DNA of 64,000 bases from IMG/VR virus record IMGVR_UViG_3300009529_000008; one strand, given 5' to 3'. Below are positions 30,576-64,000 of this stretch, in pieces. The notes below the pieces were generated by a model, which was not told the DNA's origin, searched no databases, and saw nothing but the letters and a program-made list of their open reading frames with translations. Both the position numbers and the translations under genes were made by a program. Positions within the stretch are counted from its first letter, which is position 1. Every line of letters starts with the position of its first letter. Origin of the DNA: an uncultured virus (IMG/VR IMGVR_UViG_3300009529_000008). Lineage: Duplodnaviria > Heunggongvirae > Uroviricota > Caudoviricetes.

Positions 30576-30577
30576 TA

Positions 30578-32424: not shown

Positions 32425-32437
32425 GAGGTTGTAAAAA

Positions 32438-32982: not shown

Positions 32983-32987
32983 ATAAA

Positions 32988-33448: not shown

Positions 33449-33659
33449 ATAAAAAAGTGAGAAGATATAAAATATGGGGTGATTCTCCCGCAAGAAAAGA
33501 ACCACAATACTTCTTTGCGAAGAACAAAGCGAGTTTGCTAAAAAGTTTTTCCGAATTAACAAGAGAGAAAATTAGAAAAGGAAAGATAAATGTCAAATAT
33601 AATGGGGTTGTTGATTGGTAAAAATGATAGAACAGCAAGAGAAGTGGTTAAGGAAACAT

Positions 33660-35421: not shown

Positions 35422-35721
35422 ATGAGCATATTAAAAAAAATATTGGCTAAAAGAACAGTTAAGAAAAGCATAAACCGTCTTGAAAAATCGAAAATAAAAA
35501 GAATAAAAGCCAGAAGTAAGAGAGTGGGTGTCGAGTTCAGAATACCGTCCAAACGTATATTTGAGGGAAAGGAATATAGAATTTTTGATTGGAAAATATC
35601 TCTACCAGCAGCAAAAAAGATAGCAAAGGAACTACGTGAAGATGATTATAAATCCCGTGTTGCGGAACAGTGTAGTGGCGATGGTCGAAAAGGTTGGGGT
35701 ATTTACATAAGGAAAGAATAA
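35422..35721 (+). CDS. Small basic protein (F[DN]GK.Y family)
   Basis: IFEGKEY...AAKKIAKELR...YKSRV...WGIYIRK. Confidence 0.7.
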   Translation: MSILKKILAKRTVKKSINRLEKSKIKRIKARSKRVGVEFRIPSKRIFEGKEYRIFDWKISLPAAKKIAKELREDDYKSRVAEQCSGDGRKGWGIYIRKE

Positions 35722-42229: not shown

Positions 42230-42364
42230 ATGACCTATAAACTTGATATGTTTTGGTCTCGTTCCTATTTCCTCGCTACTACCGAGCAGGTAACTTTAGA
42301 CCAATTGAAGAAATATGTGGAATCACAAGGAGAGAAGAAAAAGAGAAATGCAAACAACCTATAA
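42230..42364 (+). pseudogene. tnpA: Internally deleted IS200-type Y1 transposase (44 aa)
   Basis: MTYKLD fused to [27 protein letters not shown] motif absent. Confidence 0.85.
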
Positions 42365-43478
42365 ATTTCGGATGTACCCTGCAAAGGAAGATGAAAAGAA
42401 GTTGTTATTTGTGTTAGAAATATGCAGATTGCTCTACAATTCCTTCCTGGCTATCTGGAATGATAGTGATAAGATTCCTTCCCGATACAAGTTGCAGGCG
42501 ATGCTGCCCGTGATGAAAGGGGAGAAGGAAAGACTGAAAAAGGTAAATTCAAAAACGCTACAAATGGTACTGTTCATGCTGTACAACAATCTGAAGGCAT
42601 TGCGCGAGCTGAAGAAGAAAGGCAGAAAAGTGGGTAAGTTGCGCTATAAGAAATACGGTAAAATCAAAAGTTTCATCCTCAACCAGTCAGGATTCAAAGT
42701 AATCATGACAGGCAATAGGCTCGACAATCTCTATATATCCAAAGTAGGGGACATTCCAATGCGAATTCACCGGGAGATAGAGGGGAAGATAAAACAGGTG
42801 ATTGTAAAGCAGTACAAATCGGGGGAATGGTACGCATTGATTTCGGTGGATAAAGAAGTTTCGGTAATAATGAGGACAATAGAGAAAGTTATTGGGTTAG
42901 ATGTGGGAATAAAATTCTTCCTTTCTGATAGCGATGGCAGGCAGATAGAGAATCCAAAATTCTATAAGAAAACGCTGGAGCGGATAAGAATAGAGCAGCG
43001 AAAACTATCACGCAAGAAGAAAGGTTCGCAGAACCGTAAGAAAGAGATTCTGTGGGTAGCAAAGCTACATCAGCGACTGACAAATCAGCGTGATGATTTC
43101 CTACACAAGCTGTCACGATTCTATGTGGATAACTATGACCTGATAGCAATTGAGGATTTGAATATAAAAGGAATGACGAAGAATCATCACCTTGCACAGT
43201 CAATATTAGATGCTTCGTGGAGCAAGTTCTTTAGGATGCTGGAGACCAAAGCTGAAATAGCTGGCTCTTTGGTATCTAAGATAAACCCACGGGGCACATC
43301 GAAAGAGCATAAATACGGCATGGAAATAGACAGGGATTATAATGCAAGTATAAACATACTCGAAAGAGGATTGACGGGGCAGGGACTGCCCTTTGTGCCT
43401 TCTGAGGTGGAACCACTACGGGAGTTGATACCAATTTCCGCAAGTTCTATCGTTGAAGTAGGAAACTCCCTGCGATAG
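42348..43478 (+). CDS. tnpB: TnpB RNA-guided nuclease (IS605 type, zinc finger absent)
   Basis: YKFRMYP, GLDVGI, IAIEDL.IKGM, P.GTS, DRD.NAS.NI. Confidence 0.93.
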
Positions 43479-43528: not shown

Positions 43529-43822
43529 ATGAAGTTTATAAGTGATAAAAGGGGACTTGCAAGTGCATTAGTATATGCAATGTTTGTAGTTATAGTTATA
43601 GCTGTATTGTACATGAGTTTAGGTGTAGGTGTCAGTTTAGTAGTCGAAATGGCAAATCAGTTTGCAGTTGAAGGTATAATTGCACCTATTATTTTAGACA
43701 CGATAAATTGGACTGTAAAATTCTGGGCATGGTTCCCCATCCTCATACTCATCGCGGCCGGCTTATATGTTATCCGGCGTGCAATCCGGCGTGGTACTTA
43801 TTCCGGGAGTGATGAATTCTAA
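43529..43822 (+). CDS. Two-TM protein with class III-like leader (DKRG/L), possible minor virion protein
   Basis: MKFISDKRG then a hydrophobic helix, spacer, second helix and basic tail. Confidence 0.6.
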   Translation: MKFISDKRGLASALVYAMFVVIVIAVLYMSLGVGVSLVVEMANQFAVEGIIAPIILDTINWTVKFWAWFPILILIAAGLYVIRRAIRRGTYSGSDEF

Positions 43823-47363: not shown

Positions 47364-47768
47364 ATGAAATTCTACGAAGTTGCGGTGATATTATTCAGTA
47401 TGGGCTTAGCAATTGGTTTGATAAACTCTATGAATCTTTTTTCTGCAAGTCAAACCGTAGAAACGCCTTCTTTCGCAATAATAAAAGAAGGAAATATAAG
47501 CACGGGAATAGAAGCGGAAAAGCCAGGAGGTGGATTTTTAGATATGGTCTGGGGATTCAGTAAGGCAGTGGGATTCTTCATAGACGGCTTAAAATTCGCT
47601 ACATATCCGTATCCCACACTTGCATATACGTTTGGCGTGCCTTCAATGAATCATCCTAATGAGAATATGCGGATTCCTTTAGCTGAAACTTTACAAGCTT
47701 TAGTAACGTTTATTTATTTAATCGGTTTGGCATCCTTTTTAAGAGGATATTCAATAGAAAGGAGTTGA
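47364..47768 (+). CDS. Membrane protein, probable virion component
   Basis: N- and C-terminal hydrophobic helices; structural-module context. Confidence 0.6.
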   Translation: MKFYEVAVILFSMGLAIGLINSMNLFSASQTVETPSFAIIKEGNISTGIEAEKPGGGFLDMVWGFSKAVGFFIDGLKFATYPYPTLAYTFGVPSMNHPNENMRIPLAETLQALVTFIYLIGLASFLRGYSIERS

Positions 47769-47772
47769 AAAG

Positions 47773-48498
47773 ATGAAACAACACACAGAAACAGTGATAT
47801 TAGCAACAGTAGTTATTTCCGTACTGTTCTTACTTGGTGTAGTATGCTTAGTAGATGCAACACCACCCAATAAACCTTTTGACCCGGTGCCTTCGGGTGG
47901 TGCAATCAATATAGAACCACAAAATACCGTAATTAGTTGGAACTGCACACATCCTGATAGTGATAACATGACTTACAATATAAAATTCTATCGTAAGGAA
48001 TATAATATGCAGATGAAAGAATATGTATCAGAAAACCAGGAAGAGAAGTCGTGGAATCCACAAGTTATGTTTTATAACACTAAATACCGGTGGCAAATAA
48101 CAGCAATTGATGAAAATGGTACAACAAATACATCGGAGTTATGGAATTTTACCACAAGAGATTTAGGTGATGACACAATAGAGGATAAGAATTATTCCAA
48201 ACCATTTGAAGATACTTTTGGTACAATGAACTTTTCAATATTACAAATAAGTGATGGTGTACAAGCAATATATAATAACGCAATTCCTGCTGGTCTGTTT
48301 TATCTATTCATATTCGGAATGTTTTTTGTAGGCATATACATACAGCAAGGAGATATCGCAATTCCTGCAATATTGGGTATAATTCTATCACCAGCAATTT
48401 GGACTTTTGTACCTATTGAATATCAAGGAGTTACATATTGGTTGTTAGCTTTAAGTGTCTGTGGTATCTTAGCAGCAGTGTTCAAATCAAGAATGTAA
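47773..48498 (+). CDS. Secreted FN3-like domain plus 3 TM
   Basis: ISW...PD.D..TY.I...Y.WQI.A.D..G......W.FTT. Confidence 0.7.
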   Translation: MKQHTETVILATVVISVLFLLGVVCLVDATPPNKPFDPVPSGGAINIEPQNTVISWNCTHPDSDNMTYNIKFYRKEYNMQMKEYVSENQEEKSWNPQVMFYNTKYRWQITAIDENGTTNTSELWNFTTRDLGDDTIEDKNYSKPFEDTFGTMNFSILQISDGVQAIYNNAIPAGLFYLFIFGMFFVGIYIQQGDIAIPAILGIILSPAIWTFVPIEYQGVTYWLLALSVCGILAAVFKSRM

Positions 48499-48502
48499 AA
48501 AA

Positions 48503-48733
48503 ATGGAAAAAGAGAAAGAAGCGAATAACGAAAAGAGAAAGAAACAATACCCAACCTATCCGAAATGTGATGTGTTTATACCCGAAATACTTCTGCTAAA
48601 CACAAAAACATATTGTAAGATATGGAAATTGCATAACGTGAGCTTAGACGAAGCAATTGCACAACTTTCACGATTGAACGATTTAAAATTCAAGCAGAGC
48701 GGAGATAGTCAAAAAAGGAGGGAGAAAAAATGA
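48503..48733 (+). CDS. Hypothetical protein
   Basis: Coupled ORF. Confidence 0.45.
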   Translation: MEKEKEANNEKRKKQYPTYPKCDVFIPEILLLNTKTYCKIWKLHNVSLDEAIAQLSRLNDLKFKQSGDSQKRREKK

Positions 48734-49065
48734 ATTTTAAAAAATGGCTCAAAGGAAGCAGATTAGCGGAAATGGTTGATGAAGCTGCGATAGTAAAAAA
48801 AGTAGAGAAAGCAAAACAAAGAAAAGAATTAGAGAAAGAATTAAAAGAAGAGGCGGCACCACTGGTCGAAGAACTTGGTTTTTCTTTAGAAGAAGCAATG
48901 TTATATGTACAAGCGAAGAGACGAAAAGAAAGAGCAAAAGAGAAAATAAAACAAATGAAAGAAGGGTTTAGTAAATTTCAAGATTTTTGTGATCTGCGAG
49001 TTGAACCACCTAAAAGTATTATCTCGCAAAAAGGAGGAGAAAAAAATGAGAGAAAAACTAAGTAA
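48730..49065 (+). CDS. Charged helical protein
   Basis: GGAGG SD. Confidence 0.55.
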   Translation: MNFKKWLKGSRLAEMVDEAAIVKKVEKAKQRKELEKELKEEAAPLVEELGFSLEEAMLYVQAKRRKERAKEKIKQMKEGFSKFQDFCDLRVEPPKSIISQKGGEKNERKTK

Positions 49066-49522
49066 AAGAGAGAAAGAAAAACGCAAAGCAGAAAGAAAGG
49101 AAAGACGTGCAGAAGCAATGGCTGAAATGAGAAGACGTGCAGCTATGTTTGGAGGTACACGGATAGTAAAATTTGATGGACATGAAACAGTTGTACCCAT
49201 AATTGCAAAAGAGCAATATACAAAAAAGAAGAAAGTGGAAAGAAAAAATGATGTGCCACCACCAATTCCAACATTTTCGTGGAACACTACCGCACAAACA
49301 ATGGAAAAAATAGAACCGGTAAGCATAAAAGAAATAGAGGAGAAGGGAAAAATGGGAAAAGCAAGAAAAGCAATTAAAAAAGCAGAACAAGTAGGAGCAA
49401 AGATAGAAACAGGACGTAAACTTGGAGAGAATTTCTTTGGGAGAATCACTGAGAATATTGTAGAAGGAGGGTTAATACCAAGAACATGGTTTGAAAAAAG
49501 AAAGTCACGAACCCCGCGCTAA
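49046..49522 (+). CDS. Basic protein; C-terminus altered by the IscB insertion
   Basis: GGAGGA SD; the empty site would end ...FEKRK-stop. Confidence 0.6.
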   Translation: MREKLSKREKEKRKAERKERRAEAMAEMRRRAAMFGGTRIVKFDGHETVVPIIAKEQYTKKKKVERKNDVPPPIPTFSWNTTAQTMEKIEPVSIKEIEEKGKMGKARKAIKKAEQVGAKIETGRKLGENFFGRITENIVEGGLIPRTWFEKRKSRTPR

Positions 49523-49785
49523 AGCGCGAGGCATGTCGTAAGACATAGCCTCTTCGTGATTAGGGAGCGTAGAAGAAAGATGCAAACAGAAGCAGAAGAA
49601 AAAAATACGCAGCAGTTGGGAAGTAGCATCATGCCTGGGATACTGCTCACGTCTCCACAAGGCATGGTCGAAGGGTTAAAGACTACGAGGGGTAGTAGCG
49701 GTGCTCTCGACGTAAAAACGCTTTCCAACAATCCCAAGGAACAGGGACTCCGACCAGCAGGAGAGCCTAAAGCGAAATCGCTGGT
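49484..49785 (+). ncRNA. Predicted omega-RNA (guide about 49484-49503 plus scaffold)
   Basis: Blocks GATTAGGGAGCG, CGCAGCAGTT and AACAATCCC shared with element 2. Confidence 0.7.
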
Positions 49786-51042
49786 ATATGTCATAAATAA
49801 AAACGGGAAGCCTTTAATGCCGTGCAAATCGGCAAAGGCAAGACATTTGTTAGAAGCAGGCAAGGCAAAAGTAGCGAACCACAATCCTTTTACCATTCAG
49901 CTATTGTGGGATTGTGAAGAGAATGTGGACAAATTAGTGTTAGGAATAGATGCAGGTTACAAGACCATTGGATATAGCGTAATATCGAAAACACGAGAAT
50001 TGATAGCAGGCGAACTCGAATTAAGAACAGACATAAAGAGATTATTGGATAAGAGAAGAGCATATAGGAGAACGCGCAGAAGTAGATTATGGTATAGAAA
50101 ACCGGGGTTCGAACATAATACCAAAAAGGAAGGATGGCTTGCCCCAAGTCTTCAGCATAAGTTAGATAGTCATATCAAACTTGTTGAGCGATTGAAGCAG
50201 ATATTACCGGTAACAAAAGTGATAGTAGAAGTAGCTTCATTTGACCAGCAGAAGATGCAACACCCTGAGATAACCGGTGTAGAATACCAGCAGGGTGAAC
50301 TTCGAGGTTATGAAGTAAGAGAGTATCTGTTAGAGAAGTGGCAACGCAAGTGCGCTTACTGCGGTAAGGAGGACGTGCCATTGGAAGTAGAGCATATCGT
50401 GCCGAAGTCAAGAGGCGGCAGTGATAGAGTGTCTAATTTGGCTATAAGTTGCCACGACTGCAACCGGGAGAAGGGCAACCTAACCGCAGAGGAGTTTGGA
50501 CACCCAGAGATACAAAAGAAAACGAGACAATCGTTAAAAGCAACGGCATTTATGAACGTTATACGGTGGAAACTGGTGAACATACTTGGTTGTGGTTATA
50601 CTTATGGTTATATCACGAAATACAATCGCATAAAGTGTGGACTGACGAAGTCACACGTGAACGATGCGTTTGTTATTGGCGGTGGTAAGAATACACATAA
50701 CCGTGCAGAAGTGCATGTGATTACGAAACAGGTGCGAAGACAAAACAGGAGTTTATACAAGGCGAACTTATTGAAAGGTGGGAAGTTAAAACGGAATACC
50801 GTGAAAGAAGTAAAAGGCTTCAGGAGGTTTGACAAGGTGATGTACGGAAAGGTAAAATGCTTCATATTTGGATTGAGGAGTAGTGGATATTTCAATTTGA
50901 AAACAATAGAAGGCGAAAAGGTAAATGATTCAGTAAGTTGTAAAAAGTTGACATTCGTAGAAAGAGCAAGAGGAAGAATAGAGGAGATGAAAAGGGCAGT
51001 TCCTCTCTGGACTGAAGTCCAGAGTCTCCCTGCCCCTGTATG
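49504..51042 (+). mobile_element. Non-autonomous IscB (OMEGA) element 1, followed by ATGA
   Basis: Starts GTCACGAACCCCGCGCTAAAGCGCG hairpin; ends with hairpin GGGCAG..TCTGGACTGAAGTCCAGA..CTGCCC; empty site restores the upstream stop codon. Confidence 0.85.
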
Positions 51043-51043
51043 A
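49580..51043 (+). CDS. iscB: IscB RNA-guided nuclease
   Basis: PLMP, GIDAG, RR.YRR.RR.R bridge helix, VE..SFD, CAYC...EHIVP.SRGG....NL...C..CN, SH.NDA. Confidence 0.95.
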   Translation: MQTEAEEKNTQQLGSSIMPGILLTSPQGMVEGLKTTRGSSGALDVKTLSNNPKEQGLRPAGEPKAKSLVYVINKNGKPLMPCKSAKARHLLEAGKAKVANHNPFTIQLLWDCEENVDKLVLGIDAGYKTIGYSVISKTRELIAGELELRTDIKRLLDKRRAYRRTRRSRLWYRKPGFEHNTKKEGWLAPSLQHKLDSHIKLVERLKQILPVTKVIVEVASFDQQKMQHPEITGVEYQQGELRGYEVREYLLEKWQRKCAYCGKEDVPLEVEHIVPKSRGGSDRVSNLAISCHDCNREKGNLTAEEFGHPEIQKKTRQSLKATAFMNVIRWKLVNILGCGYTYGYITKYNRIKCGLTKSHVNDAFVIGGGKNTHNRAEVHVITKQVRRQNRSLYKANLLKGGKLKRNTVKEVKGFRRFDKVMYGKVKCFIFGLRSSGYFNLKTIEGEKVNDSVSCKKLTFVERARGRIEEMKRAVPLWTEVQSLPAPV

Positions 51044-51353: not shown

Positions 51354-52586
51354 CTAATAAAAAGTACTATTAGATTTATTAATTTCTTTATTCGTTACAC
51401 GTAATGGGTGTAAGGCACACCCTCCTACACCATCCACTTCTCTTTGCAGAAAGGCTTTTGGTTCGCTTTTAGCTATTATGTTGTAGCTCGCATTGACGTC
51501 GGCATTTATCAACAAACCTTTTGCAGTCCTGAACAATCCTCGTTTTATTCGCTTGCCTAAATATTTGTTGTGGTGTTTTATCGGTTCATTATCCAAGAAG
51601 CTACAAACACTTGTATGGCTCTCTTCTTGTTCTTTTAAGGTTATTCCTACCTCTTCTACTTTATAACTAAGTTTTTGAATAATTGTATCAAAAGGGATTA
51701 ATACAAAATTCTGATTGTTTTTTCTTCCTAATTTAATCTTCTGTTTCCAATATTGATTTTTGCCAATTACTATTGTCCCTATGTTATGTTTTACACACCA
51801 ATCTACCATCCATTTTGTTAGTTTATGTATCCAATCATTTGCTTTTTTATCTCTTTTTACTTGTAGTCTTCGCATCTTATCACCATACTTAATTCCTTGC
51901 GTTGCATATATATTCTGCAATTCTGCTTTTCGTTTATTATAGAATTGATTTATAGATTTTATACCACTTCCATCATCTTTTATAACAATTGGTTTTAATC
52001 CAATGTTATTTACCATTGCGATGATATTCTTGCTTCCAAAATCAATTCCTACTATTCTACTTTGGTCTTTTTCTTCTATATCTACTTCCTTTTCATATAC
52101 AATTTCTGCTACATATCCTACTCCTTTAGGTATGATTCTTACTTCTCTAAGGTTTGTATTATCTGGGAGGCGTGTCTTTACCTTAATTCCCCCTTTCTTT
52201 GGAAATTTGAGTATGCCGTCTTTTATGTGACATTGTTGGTTTGTAAAAATAAGGATATGCTCCCCGTTCTTCTTCTTATAGTGAGGCGGATTTGGTTTCT
52301 TTAGGAATTTGTCCGGATGCTTTTTCCACGCTCTTATAGCTCTAAAAAATGAAGTCCAACTTTTGTCTAAGAGTTTAAGAATTTGTTGAGATGTTTGAGT
52401 TGGTAGAGATTGGTAGTTTTCGCTTTCTTCTTTGAGAATTTTATTAAGGTCACCGTAGCGAATCCATTTACCTTTCTCTGCATTTTTGATGATGTAATTA
52501 GCCTGGTTAAACAAATTCTTAGATAAGTGACACAATTTGCTGATTATTCTGTTAGCTTTCATCCATATTTGTTCTGTTCGTATCAT
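51354..52586 (-). CDS. tnpB: TnpB RNA-guided nuclease, rearranged-RuvC clade (paralog of 33773)
   Basis: RTEQIW, SKNL.NQANY, GIDFGSKN, VIG.N..WKQ, EESHTS, INADVNA; right end TGTTTTTCATAAGG near 51334. Confidence 0.93.
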   Translation of the reverse strand: MIRTEQIWMKANRIISKLCHLSKNLFNQANYIIKNAEKGKWIRYGDLNKILKEESENYQSLPTQTSQQILKLLDKSWTSFFRAIRAWKKHPDKFLKKPNPPHYKKKNGEHILIFTNQQCHIKDGILKFPKKGGIKVKTRLPDNTNLREVRIIPKGVGYVAEIVYEKEVDIEEKDQSRIVGIDFGSKNIIAMVNNIGLKPIVIKDDGSGIKSINQFYNKRKAELQNIYATQGIKYGDKMRRLQVKRDKKANDWIHKLTKWMVDWCVKHNIGTIVIGKNQYWKQKIKLGRKNNQNFVLIPFDTIIQKLSYKVEEVGITLKEQEESHTSVCSFLDNEPIKHHNKYLGKRIKRGLFRTAKGLLINADVNASYNIIAKSEPKAFLQREVDGVGGCALHPLRVTNKEINKSNSTFY

Positions 52587-52719
52587 TGATATTATTCTAC
52601 TACATACAACTCCATTACAGCAATAATTAGTCATTTTCTTATCTTTTATAATAAATGTAATTTGATATTTATTAAGGTTTATTGTTTGTTGGTATTATAA
52701 ACAAGTTCAAATATTACAA

Positions 52720-53279: not shown

Positions 53280-54811
53280 CTAAGTGCCGAGAAGACCCCT
53301 TCCGAGTTTGCTCGGTGGGGGATGAATCGGCTTCACTCCCATTGTATTCCTTTTCCATATTTTAACACCTCTACATTCTTAATGTTTGTATTAATTACCT
53401 CGCCCACTTTAGTTACTATTCTTACCCATTTACCGTAACTGAATATGCCTTTTACTCTGCATAGCATACTGCTATAATTCACCAAATCGTTGGGTTGCAT
53501 TTTGTATCTTTGACGCCGTATTGATGGTTTGTAACCCTTTCGGTTTGTTTGTATGCTTCTGTTGTTTCGTCTTGTTTGTGTTAGTTGCTGTGCTTTGCTT
53601 CTTTCTTGGGTGTTCCCGCCGCCAGCAATAATAAACGCATCATTTACATGTGATTTTTCTAAGCCTTGTTGTATTCGGTTGTGTTTCGTGATGTAGCCAT
53701 AAGTCCAATTGCAATTAAGGATATTCACCAGTTTCCACCGGATATTATTCATAAATGCCGTTGCTTTCAGCGATTGCTTTGCTTGTTTCTGTATTTCCGG
53801 ATAGCCGAATTCCGCTGCTGTCAGGTCGCCTTTTTTATGGTTACATTTGTGGCATGCGATTGTGAGGTTGGAGACTCTATCACTTCCTCCTCTTGATTTT
53901 GGTATGATATGTTCCACTTGCAACGGCACATTTGTCTCACCACAGTAAGCGCACTTTCTGCACCATTTCTCCAGCAAGTATTCACGCACTTCATAACCTT
54001 GTAGCTTGCCTTGCTGGTATTCTATACCGGTTATATCGGGTTTTTGCATCTTCTGGGTGTCGAAACTTGCTACTTCTACGATTGTTTTCGTTATCGGCAG
54101 TATTCGCTCCAAGCGGTCTATTAATCGGATATGTGTTTGTAGTTTGTGTTCCAGAGAAGGAGCTAACCAGCCGTCTCTTCTACCGCGATTATCGAATCTC
54201 GACTCTCTATACCATTTCTGGTTTCTTCTTCCCCTGCGGTATGCACTGCGCATTTGTAACAACTTCTTGATGTTGCTCCTCAATTTGAGTTCACCCGCTA
54301 TCAATTCGCGGTTTGTTGTCGTTGCGCTGTATCCGATGTGTGCATAACCCGCATCTATGCCCAACACTATCTCTTGTTTCGCTTCGCCTGTTGAATACAA
54401 TAACCGGATAACAAATGGTGCCCGGCTAACTACTTTCGCTTTACCCTGTTCCAACAGTTTACGTGCTTTCCGCGGTGTCGTTGGCATCAATGGCTCACCA
54501 CGCATATTTAATACAGGTACTCGCAAGTCCTGTCCACTCTTGCCAGAGTGTCGGTTCCCATCGGGATTGTTAAGAAGGGTTTTTGAATCCGGCACACTGA
54601 GAGTTGCCTCTCTGTTTAATGACGGATCACAGTTGCTACGGACTTGGGAAGCATCCGTAGGTGTGTATGTATTTCTCCTTCCTAACTGCTGCGTCTTTTT
54701 TTCCATTTCTTTCTTTTCCTTTTACGCTCCCTAATCAACCAGTTGCCCTCGCTCCTCACGGAACAAGCCCCTCCCTCAAAACCTGTTAGGGTTTAGGGAG
54801 GGGTGATTGAC
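53280..54811 (-). mobile_element. Non-autonomous IscB element 2, followed by ATAA
   Basis: Starts GTCAATCACCCCTCCCTAAA hairpin; ends GCCGA..CCCC.CCGAGCAAACTCGG.GGGG..TCGGC; empty site gives ...ENEIK-stop for the upstream gene. Confidence 0.8.
53333..54706 (-). CDS. iscB: IscB RNA-guided nuclease
   Basis: PLMP, GIDAG, bridge helix, VE..SFD, HNH, SH.NDA. Confidence 0.95.
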   Translation of the reverse strand: MEKKTQQLGRRNTYTPTDASQVRSNCDPSLNREATLSVPDSKTLLNNPDGNRHSGKSGQDLRVPVLNMRGEPLMPTTPRKARKLLEQGKAKVVSRAPFVIRLLYSTGEAKQEIVLGIDAGYAHIGYSATTTNRELIAGELKLRSNIKKLLQMRSAYRRGRRNQKWYRESRFDNRGRRDGWLAPSLEHKLQTHIRLIDRLERILPITKTIVEVASFDTQKMQKPDITGIEYQQGKLQGYEVREYLLEKWCRKCAYCGETNVPLQVEHIIPKSRGGSDRVSNLTIACHKCNHKKGDLTAAEFGYPEIQKQAKQSLKATAFMNNIRWKLVNILNCNWTYGYITKHNRIQQGLEKSHVNDAFIIAGGGNTQERSKAQQLTQTRRNNRSIQTNRKGYKPSIRRQRYKMQPNDLVNYSSMLCRVKGIFSYGKWVRIVTKVGEVINTNIKNVEVLKYGKGIQWE

Positions 54812-55462: not shown

Positions 55463-58400
55463 TTGAAAAAGATATTAGTGATAGGAATAATTGCACTCTT
55501 AGTAATCTCATTAGTTTCACCTGTTCAAGCGGGTACAATTGATGATTTAATTGAGTCTGTAAAGATATTTTTTGGTTACACGCCAAAGGAAGGGTCAAAA
55601 ATAGTGATGCTTAGTGAAGGAAATGAACCAATTACTACCTACGGCAACGGCTGGAAGAAAATTCACTATGCAGATGGTCATATATCACACACCGATGGCA
55701 TACGCACATTTCAACGGTGGGATGGTGAATGGCGACCCCAATCTGAATGGAATACCACTTATATAAATACAACAGAGGGTGTAATAGCAGATGGCGGCAC
55801 CTTCAAATCCATCTTCCACCAGCGTAAAAACACCATTGTGACGGATAAATTCAGCTTTTCGCAGCAGCCATCTGCTTTGCGCTTCCTAAACATTGAGACA
55901 AAAGAGCACACTAAAATACTGGATGCCACCGCGGCTTCTCAAATCACGCTTCAAAACAATAAACTCGTTTATGAAGACATTTACCCTGATATGGATTACG
56001 AATTCATTTATGATGGTATAAAGCTCAAGGAGGATATTGTTTCTCATAAGACAGATTATCCCGCTTCTCCTTACCCGCTTGACAAAACATATCTGGTATT
56101 TTCAACGAAGTTGTGGGAGTTTTCGGGCATTCACAAACTTATGGATGATGATGGTGAAGTCATAATAGATAAAGACGTTAAAGGCATCCTGAAACTTAAA
56201 AATGTGAATGAGGATGTCTTAGCATATCTCCCGATTGGTGATGCTTCTTCCCTTTTTGTAAATCAGACATGCTACAACGAAACAACTGGAGAACCTTATT
56301 TATGCAATCAAACAAAAACCACAACAGTTCGCAACAGGGTGATTAAAGTTGATGGGATATGGTATCTGTTTTCGGGGATAAATTATGCTTGGGTGAAGGA
56401 TGCAAATCGAACTGGTGATATAACGATTGACCCCACTTGGGTTGTCGGTAGCGGCGGTGGCAATGCTTGGAGCGGGAATGTTTCGCATGATAATACCACA
56501 GAAGTACAGGCTACTGGAAAGGTTGAGCTGAGACAGGAAGTAGATGATTATGTTTCTTATTGGAGATTTGATGAAGGTTCTGGGACAAATGCGAATGATG
56601 AGAATACCACGAATAATAATGATGGAACTTTAAAACCAACGGGTTCAGAATCAATATGGAATTCTTCATCAATGTATGGTGATTATGCTTTGGATTTTGA
56701 CGGCACAGATGATTATGTTGATTGCGGGAATGATATGAGTTTGAATCCTACTGATGCGATTACGATAGAAGCGTGGGTGAGAGTGGATACTTTACCAGCT
56801 TCAAGTGATAAAATTATAAATAAACAAGATGCTTGGTTATTTGATATACGAAACCCAAGCGGTAGCACATACGAAATTAGATTTTATAATTATGGCGGTG
56901 CTTCTGGATTAAATTCTGCTGCTGTTGATGTTGGTAAGTGGATTCATGCCACTGTTACTTTTGATAAAGATGTTAGTACAAACAATACAAAACTCTATAT
57001 CAACGGAGTGATAAGTAATCAATTAACCAATCTCAACACTATACCTTCTAACAATAATGTCATTTATATGGGGAGTTATCTTGGTACATCATTTTATTTA
57101 GATGGCACAATAGACGAAGTCCGCATTTACAATCGGGCATTATCCAATAATGAAATCAATCAAACTATGGATAACGAACATAAAACGGAAGGCAACCTCA
57201 CCTCCTGGCACGATGCGGGGAGCGGCAACGAAACCTACAAACTATCTGCAAACTTCACCTTCCCTGCCAACACCAATGCCAGCATCAACCTCTATAACAA
57301 TGATACGGGGGCATTCATAGAAACTTTAGCAACCTACACAACGACTACGAATTGGAATGCCACCATCACCAGCCCAGTTCAGGATTCAAAGGTGAATATA
57401 ACGCTGTACGGGAATGTAAGCCAGACGCCTGAAGTGCACAACATTACATTCCATACGCAGGCATCGGTAAGCGGAACAACACCTTCAATTTCAAATACGA
57501 CAAACGGTAGCATTAACACAACTGCTCATTGGATAGATTGGGATGTAAACCAAAGTTGTGCAAACAGAATAAAATATTCTAATGAATCTGATTTAACACC
57601 TACTTATTGGAGCAATTGGGAAAACAATACGGCAACACCAAACATAACTATTTCCGTATTATCACCTTCTACAACTTATTATTTCCAAGCATGGAGTTAT
57701 AACACAACGAACAATATACTAACAGATAATAGTACAACTTTTAGTTTTACAACACCCACAATAGATACCACCTTCACCGTAAGCTTACCAACAGGCTATA
57801 CTTATGCTCATTTTCAACCACCTAACAGCACTGCTACGAACTATGACCCCGAAGGGCAGAGCAGTATTAATTATACCAATTGGTATAATAGTAGTTGGTC
57901 GTACCGCAAGCAATGGACTATCACCAATGTAAATACCACCACACTAACTAATTATCCAGCATATATTAATGTAACTGATGAACCCGAAATGCAGGCAGAT
58001 TGGGATGATGTAATATTTACGGATTCTAATAATAATTTAATCGCCTACGAATTGGAGAACTACACCGCTGACTTTGGCGATTATTGGGTTAATATCTCAT
58101 TCCTACCCGCAAGTGGTACATATACTGGCTGGATATATTATGGCAATGACGGTGCTTCTTCGCAGGAGAATCCAGAAGGTGTTTATGACAGCAATACTAA
58201 AATGGTACATCATTTGCAAGAAGCGCCTGCTAATGATACGGTAGGGCATCTGGATTCAACTTCAAATGATAATGACGGCACACCAAAGAATTTTAACGGG
58301 ATTGCTACTTCAACAACAGATGGCATGGGACTGATAGATGGTGCAAATGTATTTGACGGCTACAACGACTACATCAGCTGCGGCAACGACCCCTCCCTAA

Positions 58401-59146
58401 ACATCACTGATGCGATTACGATTGAGGCGTGGGTGAAATCTGCTGTAATCGGAACAAGTCAAAGCAATCATGCTGGTATAGTGGCAACTAATGGATATAA
58501 ATTAGATGTAAATGTAGATGGTGATGGAAAATTCTTTTTCAGGGTATATACTGCATCAGGACAACAACCAATAGCAGTTGGCGCAACAATTTCTGAAGCA
58601 GGACAATGGTATTTTGTTGTTGCTCAATATACGGGAAGTAAAATAAGAATATATGTAAATGGTGTTTTGGAGGATGAGGAGAATAGGACAGGGGCAATAA
58701 ATGTTTTTGGGGGGTTAGATATAGGGAGGGAAACAGGAGACGCAAATAGACATTTCAACGGCACAATAGACGAGGTCAGGATTTACAATCGGGCGTTGAG
58801 CGCGGATGAGATTAACCAGAGTTACCAACTCACCACCAACCAGAGCAGTTTTGTGGAGTGGGGAAGTGAAGAAAAATATACTACACCATTTTATCAAGTT
58901 ACAAACATGGGCAATGTCAATTTAGACGTGATAATGCAACTAAATTCAACTATTGCAGATATTGTTTTAAAGGCTGATACTGATAACAATTCATCAGGTG
59001 CTCAGGAAATTAATACCACACAACTTACGATTTATTCTAGTCTGCAACCAGACAATTGCTTAAATGTATGGATTTGGAGCGATTTTAACCACACCGTTGA
59101 GCAACAAACTAACAAAACTTTATATATTAATGTCACACAGTTATAA
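55463..59146 (+). CDS. Large secreted mosaic adhesin: two LamG/concanavalin-like domains, FN3, DUF2341, split C-terminal filament-like domain
   Basis: YWRFDEG, AITIEAWV, LYING, GTIDEVRIYNRALS x2, W.YRK, YYGN; many sequons. Confidence 0.85.
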   Translation: MKKILVIGIIALLVISLVSPVQAGTIDDLIESVKIFFGYTPKEGSKIVMLSEGNEPITTYGNGWKKIHYADGHISHTDGIRTFQRWDGEWRPQSEWNTTYINTTEGVIADGGTFKSIFHQRKNTIVTDKFSFSQQPSALRFLNIETKEHTKILDATAASQITLQNNKLVYEDIYPDMDYEFIYDGIKLKEDIVSHKTDYPASPYPLDKTYLVFSTKLWEFSGIHKLMDDDGEVIIDKDVKGILKLKNVNEDVLAYLPIGDASSLFVNQTCYNETTGEPYLCNQTKTTTVRNRVIKVDGIWYLFSGINYAWVKDANRTGDITIDPTWVVGSGGGNAWSGNVSHDNTTEVQATGKVELRQEVDDYVSYWRFDEGSGTNANDENTTNNNDGTLKPTGSESIWNSSSMYGDYALDFDGTDDYVDCGNDMSLNPTDAITIEAWVRVDTLPASSDKIINKQDAWLFDIRNPSGSTYEIRFYNYGGASGLNSAAVDVGKWIHATVTFDKDVSTNNTKLYINGVISNQLTNLNTIPSNNNVIYMGSYLGTSFYLDGTIDEVRIYNRALSNNEINQTMDNEHKTEGNLTSWHDAGSGNETYKLSANFTFPANTNASINLYNNDTGAFIETLATYTTTTNWNATITSPVQDSKVNITLYGNVSQTPEVHNITFHTQASVSGTTPSISNTTNGSINTTAHWIDWDVNQSCANRIKYSNESDLTPTYWSNWENNTATPNITISVLSPSTTYYFQAWSYNTTNNILTDNSTTFSFTTPTIDTTFTVSLPTGYTYAHFQPPNSTATNYDPEGQSSINYTNWYNSSWSYRKQWTITNVNTTTLTNYPAYINVTDEPEMQADWDDVIFTDSNNNLIAYELENYTADFGDYWVNISFLPASGTYTGWIYYGNDGASSQENPEGVYDSNTKMVHHLQEAPANDTVGHLDSTSNDNDGTPKNFNGIATSTTDGMGLIDGANVFDGYNDYISCGNDPSLNITDAITIEAWVKSAVIGTSQSNHAGIVATNGYKLDVNVDGDGKFFFRVYTASGQQPIAVGATISEAGQWYFVVAQYTGSKIRIYVNGVLEDEENRTGAINVFGGLDIGRETGDANRHFNGTIDEVRIYNRALSADEINQSYQLTTNQSSFVEWGSEEKYTTPFYQVTNMGNVNLDVIMQLNSTIADIVLKADTDNNSSGAQEINTTQLTIYSSLQPDNCLNVWIWSDFNHTVEQQTNKTLYINVTQL

Positions 59147-59720: not shown

Positions 59721-60527
59721 ATGCAAAAAGGAATTGTATTAGTCGCTATAATTATAGCGATAGGAATAAGCATAATTGGAGCGAGTAGCATCTTGTATTT
59801 CTGTTCTCCTTCTCCTACTTCTAATCATATAGACTATATGAGTGAATTGCCAGAGAAACCCAGTGATTTTTATGTTGTTACAAGAGAAATACAATCGCAC
59901 TATATAAATCTTTGTGAACTCGATGGTTCTTATTATTTACAACCCGAATTCTATGTACAGAGTTGGGAAAGAGGAAAACATTATTACGATTCCCACGATT
60001 ATTCTCGGTGGGGCGTTCACGGTCACGGTGCTTATCCGGGAAACCCGCAAATATATTTCAACAATACTACACCAAACTCATGGATTTCGTTCTGCGTGTT
60101 CTACCGTACTGGTTGGAATATAGAAACATGGCAAGGGCTTAAACTAATAGCAGAAGAAAACGAGTATTTTGATGTGTACATAGAACCTGATGAATTTCTG
60201 TTAGAACCCACTTTCCCTGTTTTCAAAGAAGGATGGGCAAAGAAGTTAAAAATTACAGTGCTCATAAAGAAAACACCACCTAAAGGCACTTACAAAATTG
60301 CCATAAATGCTATTAATCCATCCGAAGAAAAAGCTAAAGGATGGTTCTGGGAAGTTCTCAAACAGGAAACACAGACAAAAGAAGAGTTAGCAATGATAGA
60401 GCAGTGCGAACAACAAGGTATGTCCGTGCAATGCAAGGAATGGATTGAAACAGACAGAAAAAACAAATATGTGGATGCTGGGTTTATACAAGTAGGAAAT
60501 AGACTATTGTTGGAAATAAATGTATGA
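59721..60527 (+). CDS. Membrane-anchored secreted protein with an Ig-like segment
   Basis: N-terminal TM; P.GTY.I.I. Confidence 0.6.
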   Translation: MQKGIVLVAIIIAIGISIIGASSILYFCSPSPTSNHIDYMSELPEKPSDFYVVTREIQSHYINLCELDGSYYLQPEFYVQSWERGKHYYDSHDYSRWGVHGHGAYPGNPQIYFNNTTPNSWISFCVFYRTGWNIETWQGLKLIAEENEYFDVYIEPDEFLLEPTFPVFKEGWAKKLKITVLIKKTPPKGTYKIAINAINPSEEKAKGWFWEVLKQETQTKEELAMIEQCEQQGMSVQCKEWIETDRKNKYVDAGFIQVGNRLLLEINV

Positions 60528-61564
60528 ACAAAAATATTATTCGAGGAATATTTGCAGTTGCTTTGGTTGTTTGTTTTCTAATACAACCAATAGGGGGTGA
60601 TTACGACAAATACAATGTAAACTGGCGATTACCGTACAATATCACAGGTTATGTTCTGCACATCAATGGCACAGGAATAGAAAATGCTTATGTCCAGAAT
60701 AATGTTACTACTGAAACAAATTATTCTAGTATATCGGGTTATTATATCCTATCTGGAATAGAAGACAACTCAGTTTTGGTCACCACGAGTAAAACGGGTT
60801 ATATAACTAATTCGATAACCGTTAATGCAGATGGCAATTTAACATTATACAATCAAAACATAACACTTTCAGAGATGGTGTATGCACCAAACATAACATC
60901 ATGGTGGAATAATTACACTTCTGATAATTCTACCAATTTCACCATTCCCCACGAGGACGAAAACAACCGCACGGTATTTTTTAATGTCACTGCTGACCAG
61001 GAAATAGATTATTGGGTATGGTACGTAGATGGTGAACTTTATCAAAATTCTTCTTCCGATAATATCACAAAAACATGGGACGAAGGAGGTGACAAAACCG
61101 TAAGTATTTATGGTATCAACGCAAACGGGCAAACAAATACATTAACATGGAATATTGAAATAGAGTTTACAAGTTACGAATACGAAAAGCTTATATATGA
61201 ACAGAACTTATTATTATTGGAGGAAAATGAAATGATAGGACAAACTATGTTATTTGCGATACTTCTTATTATCGCTTTTGTATCCTTAGCGGTTGGCTAT
61301 CTCTCACCAAATTCTCAATTTAAGATTTTCGGTGCCGCATTCTCATCGCTTTTATTTATCATTTTAGCGTATGCAATTATAGGCAATCAATTCGGTGAGA
61401 AATTGCAGATGGCATGGCTCGCTACACTTTTAGTTGCATTAGGTATTGTTCAGACAATTTATACATTATTAACAGTTATCAGCTTATTATATATGATGTT
61501 TGTATCGAAAGGGCAAGCGGGGATGAATAATATACCCTTTGACCCGTACGATGGAAAGTGGTAA
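60524..61564 (+). CDS. Secreted glycoprotein (carboxypeptidase-regulatory-like plus PKD-like) with 3 C-terminal TM
   Basis: ITGYV...G..IENA.V...GYY.L; W.WYVDG; TM helices. Confidence 0.7.
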   Translation: MNKNIIRGIFAVALVVCFLIQPIGGDYDKYNVNWRLPYNITGYVLHINGTGIENAYVQNNVTTETNYSSISGYYILSGIEDNSVLVTTSKTGYITNSITVNADGNLTLYNQNITLSEMVYAPNITSWWNNYTSDNSTNFTIPHEDENNRTVFFNVTADQEIDYWVWYVDGELYQNSSSDNITKTWDEGGDKTVSIYGINANGQTNTLTWNIEIEFTSYEYEKLIYEQNLLLLEENEMIGQTMLFAILLIIAFVSLAVGYLSPNSQFKIFGAAFSSLLFIILAYAIIGNQFGEKLQMAWLATLLVALGIVQTIYTLLTVISLLYMMFVSKGQAGMNNIPFDPYDGKW

Positions 61565-61879
61565 TTACCTTCTTTTCTCTTCAGTAAAGCAATCCACCCC
61601 ACGAACAACCAAAACTTGCCATGGTTTCATATCACATTCTTTAATAAGATAATTATTGTTATAAAATTTTACATGAATACCAAACCGCATAAAACATGTA
61701 TGAACAAAAAAATTTGTTGGTTTTTTGAATGTAAATACTAATTTACCATCAAAATTTCTCTTAAACATTAATCCCAGTGTTCTTTTTAGAAATGTGTTCG
61801 CATATTCTATTTTGTATCTCTCAAACATGCCTTGTGGTGCAACATTCTCCATGTCTACAATGAATTGTATGGGTATCAT
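61565..61879 (-). CDS. DUF192 (COG1430) family protein
   Basis: A.TF..R..GLMF....G.LVF......VHT.FMRF.I. Confidence 0.75.
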   Translation of the reverse strand: MIPIQFIVDMENVAPQGMFERYKIEYANTFLKRTLGLMFKRNFDGKLVFTFKKPTNFFVHTCFMRFGIHVKFYNNNYLIKECDMKPWQVLVVRGVDCFTEEKRR

Positions 61880-61899
61880 GCTTTCATTCGCTTATCGGG

Positions 61900-61940
61900 T
61901 TTAAAAAAATAAAAAAGAGAGGTAAAAAGAAATCCTCTCA
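61900..61940 (-). terminator. Hairpin plus T-tract after the putative capsid gene
   Basis: Minus strand GAGAGG-N11-CCTCTC followed by TTTTTTATTTTTTT. Confidence 0.6.
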
Positions 61941-61972
61941 ATGTTTTCTATTTGTTTTTTTGTGGCGTTTGC

Positions 61973-62308
61973 TTACTCACCACCTTTGCGTGAGAACATC
62001 ATGAACAGCATCGGAAGTACGATTGCCATTATTCCCATCAGTGCGACTAACTTGTACATACTGAATCCCAATGCCACACCGCCTACTACATTGTAGTAAG
62101 ATTCGTTCCACTTACTGTCGTTCGCTATCGTGATGACCTTATCAGTTTCACCTACGAGCATCATCATCACTGATCCAATTACCGCTGCCAGACCGAACAG
62201 GATTATCACGTACACTATCGGATGATCCATGAAACCTCCGCCTATCTGTCCTTTCTTGTCCCTTTTTATCTTCCTCGCGTCTGTTAAAATTTCGTGTAGT
62301 TTACTCAT
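61973..62308 (-). CDS. Putative major capsid protein of a spindle-shaped virus (two hydrophobic helices) with class III-like leader KKG/Q
   Basis: Basic leader, KKGQ, helix 1, short N-x-S loop, helix 2, basic tail; GGAGGTGA SD; strong terminator. Confidence 0.6.
   Translation of the reverse strand: MSKLHEILTDARKIKRDKKGQIGGGFMDHPIVYVIILFGLAAVIGSVMMMLVGETDKVITIANDSKWNESYYNVVGGVALGFSMYKLVALMGIMAIVLPMLFMMFSRKGGE
61989..62077. repeat. 89-bp perfect direct repeat, copy 1 (copy 2 at 62650-62738)
   Basis: Base-by-base identical; encodes VALGFSMYKLVALMGIMAIVLPMLFMMFS(R). Confidence 0.95.
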
Positions 62309-62317
62309 TTTTCTTTT

Positions 62318-62584
62318 TCACCTCCCTCGCATTTTCATTGCAGCAAACATCAATGATAAAAATCCGAACATCGCCGCCAATATAAGAAATATTGTTGCTC
62401 CAGAAAGCATTGTAAAGCTTGTTTGTGTCATACCAACCGTTAGGGTGTATGTTTCGTTCAATCCAGATTCGTTAAGCGATGTTTGATTAATATTTTGGTC
62501 TATTGATGTTATACCACTCATTGCTGCAAAGCTTAAGATACCCACTGCTACAAAAAGCATCAGGATACCTAATATTTTTATCAT
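62318..62584 (-). CDS. Two-TM capsid-like protein without a leader
   Basis: Helix, glycosylatable loop, helix, basic tail. Confidence 0.55.
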   Translation of the reverse strand: MIKILGILMLFVAVGILSFAAMSGITSIDQNINQTSLNESGLNETYTLTVGMTQTSFTMLSGATIFLILAAMFGFLSLMFAAMKMRGR

Positions 62585-62633
62585 TTCTCTTCTCTCCGTT
62601 CGAGTAATTGTTTCTCTTTTGTTTGGTTATGTA

Positions 62634-63161
62634 CTACTCTTCCCTGCGTCGTGAGAACATCATGAACAGCATCGGAAGTACGATTGCCATTATTCCCATC
62701 AGTGCGACTAACTTGTACATACTGAATCCCAATGCCACGCCACTGACGATATTGAGATAGCTTCCGTTCCACTTATTCTCATCGTATTTGTAGTCCACAC
62801 CATAAGTTCCGTTAGTCCATGCAGTTATGTTCATCAATACATTATCACTTATATTATAGTGCGTGTCTTTCGTAAGTATCGTTCCTGGTGTACTAACATT
62901 GTACACACTTTCACTGTCGCCTTCTACATTTGCATGAGCAAGAGTATTTGTGTATGTATCTGAATTGTTTGTCCAGAACACCCATGACTCATTAGTTACT
63001 GAAGGTGTATCTAAGTTTGGTGCCACTACTTTATCTGTCTCGCCGACTATCATCATCATCACTGAGCCGATTATTGCTGCAAGCCCGAAGAGAATTATGA
63101 CATACACAATGGGATGGTCTAAAAACCCCCCGCCTGCTTGTCCTCGCTTGTCTCTAATCAC
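62634..63161 (-). CDS. Paralog of the putative capsid protein with a ~80-aa beta-rich loop insertion; leader KRG/Q
   Basis: Near-identical helices to 61973; likely GTG start (MIRDKRGQ). Confidence 0.6.
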   Translation of the reverse strand: MIRDKRGQAGGGFLDHPIVYVIILFGLAAIIGSVMMMIVGETDKVVAPNLDTPSVTNESWVFWTNNSDTYTNTLAHANVEGDSESVYNVSTPGTILTKDTHYNISDNVLMNITAWTNGTYGVDYKYDENKWNGSYLNIVSGVALGFSMYKLVALMGIMAIVLPMLFMMFSRRREE

Positions 63162-63277
63162 TCGAAAATTTGACTTATTTCTCTCTTTTCTAATCAATGT
63201 TTCACTCCATAGCTTAAGATGCTCGGCTCGCTCTCTCGGCAAACAAAACACCACTAAAAAACTACATTATTTTCGTA

Positions 63278-63760
63278 CTATATAAAGCTTTCGATTATTA
63301 GAACTACAATCCACCCAATTGTTATGTGAGGTAAGAATGGTATTCCTCCTTTCTTTCGAGTAAATATAGTATATAATGCTCCTGATAATGAACTAAAAAA
63401 CAAAATATTTAACGCTGTTATAGGAAAAGGCAGGAGGGGGAAGCAAAACGAAGAAGGGAAAGAGGGCAATGAGGTTGGATTGATAAAATAAGGATAGAGA
63501 ATACTTAAACACAACATTGCTTTAACATCAGCACCAGCGAACCACTCGAAACGATAGAAGGCAAACATTATAATTGACATCATGATAATAGAACAGAGTA
63601 ACGGAACAAAAACAAAATCTGTGATAAGAAACACCAACCCGACAATAATTAAAAAACTCCACACCTTATTACTTACTTCACCTCTTCTTATATCACTATA
63701 AGAAGCGTAAACTAAGCATATTGCTACAATAATGATTTTAATGAATTCTAAATCAAACAT
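63278..63760 (-). CDS. A24-family prepilin/preflagellin peptidase (PibD/FlaK-like)
   Basis: ASYSDI....VSN.VW (Asp1), AGADVK (Asp2), IPFLP.I..G; multi-TM. Confidence 0.9.
   Translation of the reverse strand: MFDLEFIKIIIVAICLVYASYSDIRRGEVSNKVWSFLIIVGLVFLITDFVFVPLLCSIIMMSIIMFAFYRFEWFAGADVKAMLCLSILYPYFINPTSLPSFPSSFCFPLLPFPITALNILFFSSLSGALYTIFTRKKGGIPFLPHITIGWIVVLIIESFI
63279..63295 (-). promoter_or_regulatory. BRE/TATA promoter, ATCGAAAG-N-TTTATATA class, upstream of the capsid-like genes
   Basis: ATCGAAAGCTTTATATA on the minus strand. Confidence 0.7.
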
Positions 63761-63795: not shown

Positions 63796-64000
63796 TCAGC
63801 CACGGGCAATGAGACCTCGTGCTTCAGCACGGGAAGGAATTGCTCTTTTCACCTCCTGTATTTTTCCTCTTGCATGTTCCAATAACTTCAACTTCTTGCA
63901 GTTTACTGACGCTCCTATCTGGTTCCTCTCTATATCTCGCAAATCAAAGTAACCACTACTTCTTAATCCAAATATGAACCCTTTTACTTTTCCAAATAGC
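63796..64000 (-). CDS. iscB: C-terminus of a third IscB (element runs off the window), followed by ATGA
   Basis: Minus strand reads GFIFGLRSSGYFDL...SVNCKKL.LLE.ARG.I.E.KRAIP, matching the C-terminus of IscB 1; end hairpin CCCGTGCTGAAGCACGAGG. Confidence 0.85.
   Translation of the reverse strand, partial: LFGKVKGFIFGLRSSGYFDLRDIERNQIGASVNCKKLKLLEHARGKIQEVKRAIPSRAEARGLIARG

Follow-up and report, generated by a model that had tools for sequence, protein, structure and literature searches.

A prepilin peptidase gene beside genes for two-helix, capsid-like proteins with class III-type leaders in a large uncultured virus

The DNA analysed here (the window) is a stretch of 64,000 nucleotides from the uncultured virus IMGVR_UViG_3300009529_000008, which IMG/VR places in Caudoviricetes. 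Its own contig is 78,616 bp long, of which 14.6 kb fall outside the window, and all window-based counts below cover 64 kb. Five minus-strand genes lie at 63760-61565, in the order A24 peptidase, long hairpin, 88-amino-acid (aa) hairpin, short hairpin and DUF192 protein. Our best explanation of this cluster, to which we give about an even chance, is that the hairpins are virion coat proteins and that a class III signal peptidase encoded by the virus itself matures them. To the extent of our literature searches, this would be the first time that a role is proposed for a prepilin peptidase of an archaeal virus. In order of their position on the minus strand, the five genes are as follows.

63278..63760, minus strand: A24 (prepilin/class III signal) aspartyl peptidase (PF01478), 160 aa, with several hydrophobic segments
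62634..63197, minus strand: long-loop hairpin paralogue, 187 aa from the TTG at 63197 or 175 aa from the GTG at 63161
62318..62584, minus strand: leaderless hairpin, 88 aa, with two hydrophobic segments; by its profile a third, distant paralogue
61973..62308, minus strand: short hairpin paralogue, 111 aa, with a 20-aa basic leader, KKG/Q, a QIGGGFMDHP spacer, two helices and a basic C-end
61565..61879, minus strand: DUF192 (COG1430) protein, 104 aa, soluble

The initial annotation, made from the sequence without database searches, had reported that an A24 peptidase, with both of its catalytic Asp motifs, is encoded immediately upstream of the hairpins, and the gene is indeed there. Its product matches Pfam Peptidase_A24 over the full profile (1-104) at E 9.9e-13, with 48.9 bits against a cut-off of 26.5. 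Twelve relatives were found, 61-100% identical (the window's own protein included), and when the copy in L001, a related metagenomic locus described below, is added to them, D23 and D78 (the latter in AGADVK) are invariant in 13 of 13 sequences. A profile of the peptidase family finds FlaK (PDB 3S0X) at E 5e-7, with both Asp residues aligned with the FlaK motif Asp. The NCBIfam FlaK_Arch model matches at E 9e-6, far below its cut-off; because this match covers the N-terminal half only, the protein is best described as a minimal A24 enzyme that lacks the C-terminal domain of FlaK. To judge from these residues and alignments, it looks catalytically competent. A tblastn search with the peptidase against 50,697 phage and archaeal-virus records gave no match, and a scan of IMG/VR with its profile returned nothing real.

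Two paralogous proteins with a basic leader, a G/Q site, two hydrophobic segments and a sequon-bearing loop had also been described, and motif conservation, shared DNA and hydropathy confirm the description. The 111-aa gene and the long gene share 131 nt at 89% identity in the second helix and 128 nt at 76% in the first. Each protein runs from a basic leader through [KR][KR]G, Q and an xGGGF[LM]DHP spacer to a hydrophobic segment of ~30 residues, a loop, a second segment of ~30 residues and a basic end; in the long paralogue the leader ends in KRG/Q and the loop is beta-rich and ~80 aa long. The long paralogue had been annotated as a 175-aa protein, which is also its length in the sequence database. 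The gene stands, but a start at the TTG at 63197, which is preceded by GGAGTG and gives 187 aa, fits better because the orthologues are 187-194 aa long. N-X-S/T sequons in the loops number 2, 7 and 3 in the 111-, 187- and 88-aa proteins, respectively.

The leaders of the 111- and 187-aa proteins are short and basic, with K/R at -2 and G at -1, in agreement with class III signals (K/R at -2, G/A at -1). Gly at -1 and Gln at +1, with K/R at both -2 and -3, are present in 9/9 close family members. All members have a second long hydrophobic helix at the C-end, which is not the layout of type IV pilins (one N-terminal helix plus a globular domain). AlphaFold2 (AF2) places helices at 3-21, 30-59 and 67-110 in the 111-aa protein, and at 29-57 and 140-184, with strands between them, in the 187-aa protein. 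The protein between the two paralogues, which the initial annotation had noted as leaderless and two-helical, is confirmed as an 88-aa product of 62584..62318 and goes beyond that description. Compared with the hairpin family profile (A4) by hhalign, it aligns over helix 1, loop and helix 2 (74 columns) with a probability of 86% and E 4.9e-6, and an unrelated 97-aa hairpin from the same window, used as a negative control, reached a probability of 0.8%. On this alignment we regard the 88-aa protein as a third, distant paralogue of the family.

The hairpin family is tiny. A word-indexed search of 5.8 billion clusters gave 8 proteins, and a profile search of 1.84 billion representative proteins gave 12 matches at E<=0.001, one of them a clearly spurious repeat protein. 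Two distant members retain KAG/Q and TRG/Q, and four others (P0024, P0025, P0026 and P0030) have no leader. Among the latter, P0024 and P0026 start with M-x4-F-M-x-H-P, which in length equals the predicted mature Q-x-G-G-G-F-M-D-H-P. These leaderless homologues start at the predicted mature end, and no other feature within the family argues as strongly for removal of the leader at G/Q. In distant members, Cys- and sequon-rich inserts of up to ~480 residues interrupt the loops. The insert of P0030 contains a DUF2341 domain, which suits a surface-exposed virion protein; the same domain occurs in a 1227-aa LamG protein of the window, and the two occurrences together suggest shuffling of surface modules between virion proteins. 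P0026 has a long loop and P0028 a short one, and they come from contigs of 10,329 bp each. They probably lie on one contig, in which case a short-plus-long pair would recur in that lineage. A tblastn search of the same 50,697 records with the hairpin found no match, and scans of IMG/VR with the hairpin profile and with P0024 gave nothing real. The sole IMG/VR locus returned (L004) comes from a tailed-phage-like contig, where the match falls on the non-coding strand, and we rejected it as due to chance.

A metagenome scan found three related loci, L001 to L003. In L001, which spans 13.7 kb of a 46-kb contig, all five genes of the window cluster are found in unchanged order, with identities of 65% for the peptidase, 58% for the long hairpin, 92% for the 88-aa protein, 87% for the short hairpin and 73% for the DUF192 protein. 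In L003 the long hairpin comes after the peptidase, and L002 has an 87-aa protein, the short hairpin and DUF192. With its gene order kept whole in L001 and in part in L002 and L003, the cluster is more than a chance arrangement, and the peptidase is directly upstream of hairpins in 3/3 loci that contain it (window, L001 and L003). L001 also has, 1 kb upstream of the peptidase, a gene (6519-7466) for a 315-aa P-loop ATPase with a C-terminal helix-turn-helix (HTH_23, residues 274-312), a feature that His1 ORF16 has too. It matches phrog_5484 at E 8.2e-7, and the same PHROG holds SSV1 B251 (5e-101) and His1 ORF16 (3e-62). BLASTP of the L001 ATPase against those two proteins is not significant (E 0.5-0.6), which leaves the PHROG profile as the sole link. 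The ATPase lies in a segment of L001 (2282-8298) that is absent from the window. The L001 genes that flank this segment match window positions 47767-49504 on the other strand, which indicates that the cluster is inverted in the window; the window virus's own ATPase, if it has one, would lie in the part of the contig beyond the window. After the cluster, L001 (10879-13690) carries genes for a VapB-like antitoxin, a UDP-glucose dehydrogenase-like protein, an FkbM methyltransferase and a family 2 glycosyltransferase; this glycan-modification set is absent from the corresponding place in the window.

The DUF192 gene that had been reported after the hairpins matches PF02643 above the cut-off (E 8e-7, 29.5 bits against 27), as does its L001 orthologue with 32.1 bits; NCBIfam PRK03760 matches at E 1e-12, below that family's cut-off. 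The gene follows the hairpins in the window, L001 and L002. To judge from the intergenic sequence, where it stands behind a T-rich tract and a TATA-like box, it is probably its own transcription unit. We found no paper on DUF192 in such a context, judged from titles and the starts of abstracts.

In our proposal, this cluster would be the coat-protein module of a large spindle-type archaeal virus. The three paralogous hairpins would sit in the host membrane so that both ends face the cytoplasm and the glycosylated loop the exterior. Two of them would be made with a basic leader of ~20 residues, which the viral A24 peptidase would cut after [KR][KR]G at the cytoplasmic face of the membrane. The cut would leave an N-terminal Gln, which may cyclise to pyroglutamate; the 88-aa paralogue would require no cut. 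The mature hairpins would then build or decorate the virion shell, with the long-loop paralogue displaying a small beta domain on its surface, and the 97-aa hairpin would probably be cut by the same enzyme. A complex prediction with the peptidase and the 111-aa precursor scored 0.02, a value that counts neither for nor against the pairing.

The comparison with spindle viruses begins with SSV1. The reading frame of its VP1 runs ...KLTKG and then EATNIGVLL..., the mature end, and its VP3 has no leader. The protease that acts on VP1 was reported as unknown in 2017, in a study in which deletion of residues 61-65 is described as killing the virus and E66Q as viable (PMC5748691). SSV19 VP1 is described as a curved hairpin with helices at 15-44 and 54-83 (PMC9351363). 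By hydropathy and sequons, the hairpins of the window share the layout of such capsid proteins (~70-100 residues when mature), with two ~30-residue hydrophobic helices and a sequon-bearing loop, and the AF2 helices of the 111-aa protein agree at low confidence. In the ESM Atlas, the nearest named clusters to the 111-aa protein are His1_capsid and VP1_VP3, at 0.86.

Several results weigh against a capsid identity. None of the window's three hairpins matches VP1_VP3 (PF06281) or His1_capsid (PF25665) at E<=10, P0024 reaches only E 3.2 against His1_capsid, and hhalign of the family profile with SSV1 VP1/VP3 and His1 VP21 gives a probability of 10.7%. The Pfam test has little power here, since SSV1 VP1 itself scores only E 0.053 against His1_capsid. 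The ESM Atlas gives the unrelated 97-aa hairpin the same two clusters at 0.82, so its lead is better taken as a generic signal of small viral hairpins. Both AF2 models of the hairpins have low confidence (pLDDT 62), and the B251-like ATPase is present in L001 only, with no copy in the 64-kb window. Finally, the initial annotation took the class III signal to be [KR]G/[QL] with the hydrophobic helix following; the G/Q site proved invariant, but the helix starts ~8 residues after it, behind the non-hydrophobic QxGGGF[LM]DHP, unlike in canonical class III signals.

His1 VP21, used in tblastn against the phage and archaeal-virus records, found only His1 itself, and the hairpin profile against all PDB chain sequences gave one irrelevant match at E 0.71 and no pilin. 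Comparison of the predicted folds with spindle-virus capsid proteins and pilins, which the initial annotation had suggested, was run and returned only non-specific helical-hairpin matches. For the 111-aa model, Foldseek found 0 matches in PDB and 0 in BFVD. VIA-align against 48,161 chains gave 1 row at Z>=8 and 849 rows at Z>=5, all of them generic helical hairpins or coiled coils. For the 187-aa model, the best Foldseek match was to phage tail-fibre N-termini and is not significant (E 0.028, TM ~0.3, root-mean-square deviation >10). The original idea of a spindle-type capsid matured by the virus's own pilin peptidase keeps its support from the virus context, the competent-looking enzyme, the invariant G/Q, the leaderless homologues and the L001 ATPase, and finds none in homology to the SSV1 and His1 capsid proteins. 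Since architecture, paralogue pattern and cut motif agree but sequence does not, we suggest that the hairpins work like spindle capsid proteins, and we do not assign them to those families.

An enzyme of this kind may have other substrates, and the window was scanned for class III leaders (basic leader, [KR][GA], hydrophobic window) from all start codons of the 451 six-frame open stretches of >=50 codons. The scan returned the two hairpins and proteins of 97, 268, 346 and 129 aa, of which three need description.

43529..43822, plus strand: 97-aa two-helix protein with a 9-residue leader, KRG/L, and the helix at offset 0 after the cut
59721..61564, plus strand: two convergent neighbours of the cluster, 268 aa and 346 aa, with the N-termini MQKG/IVLV... 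and MNKNIIRG/IFAV...

The 97-aa protein is, on its sequence, the most canonical predicted substrate, and is likely cut by the same A24 enzyme. Its family has 16 members, in which G9, L10, A11 and S12 are invariant, and to judge from agreeing contig sizes it shares large contigs with the peptidase. It has no similarity to the other hairpins or to the SSV1 and His1 proteins, and a profile scan of IMG/VR gave nothing real. One relative carries the label 'PulF', which we rejected, as it has no T2SSF match in Pfam at E<=10. The N-termini of the 268- and 346-aa proteins could be class III signals or ordinary signal anchors, which makes them weak candidates. The 346-aa protein is rich in sequons, has C-terminal membrane helices and has an orthologue in the same place in L002.

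If the peptidase serves such other substrates (the 97-aa protein, the 268- and 346-aa neighbours or host pilins and archaellins), the G/Q hairpins may be left uncut or be cut by another protease. The textbook leader of the 97-aa protein, its G9-S12 invariance in 16/16 members and the contigs it shares with the peptidase speak for this, as does the atypical 8-residue spacer of the G/Q hairpins. We nevertheless consider it quite unlikely, since the G/Q hairpins adjoin the peptidase in 3/3 loci while the 97-aa gene is 18 kb distant in the window, G/Q and its two basic residues do not vary, and the leaderless homologues begin where the mature protein is predicted to begin. In addition, Gln at +1 marks substrates of the archaeal A24 enzyme EppA. 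Alternatively, the element might be plasmid-like and the hairpins the subunits of a conjugation-type pilus, akin to VirB2/TraA or CedA1/TedC. Conjugative and Ced/Ted systems do have helix-loop-helix pilins with cleaved leaders, and one of the 849 VIA-align rows at Z>=5, a non-specific set, is a type IV secretion stalk protein (Z 7.2). This we hold to be very improbable. Pfam families were surveyed in 104 open reading frames (ORFs) of the window and 26 of L001, and VirB4, VirD4, VirB6 and CedB-like families were found in none of them; the PDB profile search brought nothing beyond its one irrelevant match. Moreover, the loops of such pilins are cytoplasmic and short and carry neither glycans nor inserts of up to ~480 residues, and we know of no VirB2- or Ced-type pilin that is an A24 substrate.

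A third possibility keeps the enzyme-substrate pairing and gives up the capsid: the peptidase would cut the hairpins, and these would form a host-assembled membrane structure of the infected cell, such as an adhesive or pilus-like filament, a device for egress or for blocking entry, or a non-spindle envelope. A24 enzymes normally serve type IV filament systems, the adhesin-like loop inserts would suit a cell-surface protein too, and neither hhalign (the value above) nor Pfam places the hairpins in a known capsid family. Neither T2SSE nor T2SSF was found by Pfam in the surveyed ORFs of the window and L001. The initial annotation had named a pilus ATPase/TadC operon just outside the window as something that might account for these genes in another way, and none was seen: immediately upstream, the peptidase gene borders on the 3' end of an IscB-like gene, and the 8.5 kb upstream of the L001 cluster hold no pilus genes. 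The absence of assembly genes does not exclude a filament, because the pilins encoded by the archaeal virus SNJ2 depend on PilB/PilC and PibD of the host (PMC12426801). On the other side, the hairpins have two long helices and basic ends instead of the type IV pilin layout, SNJ2 is described as carrying pilins but no peptidase, no other capsid candidate was found in the 64 kb, and a spindle-virus-type ATPase lies near the cluster in L001. On balance a non-capsid membrane structure seems to us unlikely, and coat hairpins matured by the viral peptidase remain the reading we prefer.

The rest of the window, by its gene content, looks like part of a large archaeal virus. Some of the genes on which this rests are listed here.

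1414-3453: RFC-like (clamp-loader-like) AAA ATPase, split by an intein with an HNH-type endonuclease part (Pfam Intein_splicing, E 1e-14)
13034-15277: PolB
55463-59146: 1227-aa LamG surface protein with DUF2341

PolB is <=25% identical to anything among the 50,697 records. Family searches further identified a sliding-clamp-like protein, a primase-polymerase, a helicase and a PD-(D/E)XK nuclease. There are large, sequon-rich surface proteins, and the one with LamG and DUF2341 matches a PHROG 'virion structural protein' family. None of the 104 window ORFs matches a family of pilus, conjugation or cellular housekeeping proteins. No HK97 or double-jelly-roll capsid, portal or terminase was found among the 104 window and 26 L001 ORFs, and a PHROG survey of 40 window and 15 L001 ORFs named no capsid. 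Scans of species genomes with the peptidase and 97-aa profiles found no provirus or host.

The OMEGA-type mobile-element load of the window is unusually heavy for one virus-like genome, with three TnpB-like (OrfB_IS605 plus Cas12f-like TNB) and three IscB-like (RRXRR-HNH) genes.

33773-35011: TnpB-like
42315-43478: TnpB-like
51354-52634, minus strand: TnpB-like
49556-51043: IscB-like
53333-54706, minus strand: IscB-like
63796-64000, minus strand: 3' end of an IscB-like mobile-element gene, truncated by the window end

Two of the IscB genes and one TnpB gene cluster at the break of synteny with L001. The truncated gene next to the peptidase is not part of the peptidase-hairpin system; its 67 residues resemble, when compared by eye, the C-terminus of the RRXRR/HNH protein at 49556-51043.

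Several other features of the window deserve mention. About ten small (70-115 aa), very basic Lys/Arg-rich proteins are encoded at 26750-33450 and 35422-35721, several with a Y-[RV]-I-V-like motif (by eye); they match no Pfam or PHROG family, and may be DNA-condensing virion proteins with a role comparable to that of SSV1 VP2. The C-terminal part of an N6/N4 DNA methylase (PF01555, E 2.5e-14) stands in a separate, overlapping frame (17997-18230) after a 159-aa ORF (17552-18031), and 17552-18230 could be a frameshifted or split gene. A 1476-aa protein (36802-41232) ends in a long run of Ser/Pro repeats (SPSPSP...) and then a basic tail, and has no family match. The gene before it (35734-36768) encodes a 344-aa protein with a GS...DLD motif, nucleotidyltransferase-like by eye. 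The plus strand has a strong, steady positive GC skew of ~+0.3 over window positions 1-36000, where nearly all genes lie on that strand, and a skew of ~0 or below in the structural part.

A wider proposal, which we offer as possible but doubtful, is that class III signal peptidase cleavage is a general and hitherto unrecognised maturation step of spindle-type archaeal virus coats, in which small SSV1-like viruses would borrow the host's PibD (VP1 being cut after KLTKG) and large ones would carry their own A24 enzyme. Our literature searches brought up no paper in which the processing of spindle-virus capsid proteins is connected with prepilin peptidases or PibD. If the proposal is right, coat hairpins would be inserted into the membrane, processed by the peptidase and handled like type IV filament subunits, and the assembly of spindle capsids, perhaps also their origin, would be tied to pilus-type biogenesis. 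For the virus of the window itself, the reading we prefer would add intramembrane aspartyl peptidases as a new class to the enzymes that mature viral capsids. A viral A24 gene beside coat-like hairpins makes the question of capsid maturation simply testable, and points to host PibD as a candidate for SSV1; strains of Sulfolobus islandicus that lack pibD are available (PMC7217056).

Among cellular enzymes, the viral peptidase is most usefully compared with FlaK, PibD and EppA (MEROPS A24B), with which it shares the A24 domain and both catalytic Asp motifs; its presumed substrates resemble those of EppA in their basic leader, Gly at -1 and Gln at +1. It differs from these enzymes in being virus-encoded and only 160 aa long, without the FlaK C-terminal domain, in that its presumed substrates are hairpins instead of pilins or archaellins, and in having no assembly ATPase or platform nearby. 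The functional parallel among viruses is the HK97-type prohead protease, which is also virus-encoded, lies next to the capsid gene and trims an N-terminal part during assembly. That enzyme is a serine protease, whereas the one described here is an intramembrane aspartyl peptidase, and cleavage would occur in the host membrane and not inside a procapsid.

The hairpins themselves stand closest to VP1/VP3 of the fuselloviruses (SSV1, SSV19) and VP21 of His1, in that they are small and have two ~30-residue hydrophobic helices and a sequon-bearing loop. As with fusellovirus VP1/VP3, paralogues lie side by side, one with a cleaved leader (in SSV1 after K-x-x-K-G, here as predicted) and one without, and as in fuselloviruses and His1 a B251/ORF16-type ATPase is nearby, here in L001. 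They differ from SSV1 VP1 in having Gln and not Glu after the cut and an 8-residue spacer before helix 1, and from fuselloviruses in general in their loop inserts of ~80 to ~480 residues, a genome ~5x larger and the protease encoded next door. The pleolipovirus SNJ2 is, as described, another archaeal virus that supplies class III signal proteins for an A24 enzyme, but its pilins have the canonical fold and need the host's PibD, whereas in our case the proteins are hairpins and the peptidase is the virus's own (PMC12426801). In the main text of a preprint on the ANME-1 virome, the word 'peptidase' has 0 occurrences (bioRxiv 10.1101/2022.07.04.498658). Large predicted spindle viruses of ANME-1 (Itzamnaviridae, Tepeuviridae) are described in the same preprint as having genomes of 45-73 kb with structural and enzymatic arms, an RNA-primed PolB, primase, PCNA and RFC, and, in itzamnaviruses, two capsid genes. 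By that description, they resemble the element of the window in their large genome, their set of PolB, primase, clamp and RFC and, for itzamnaviruses and on our reading of the hairpins, their two capsid genes.

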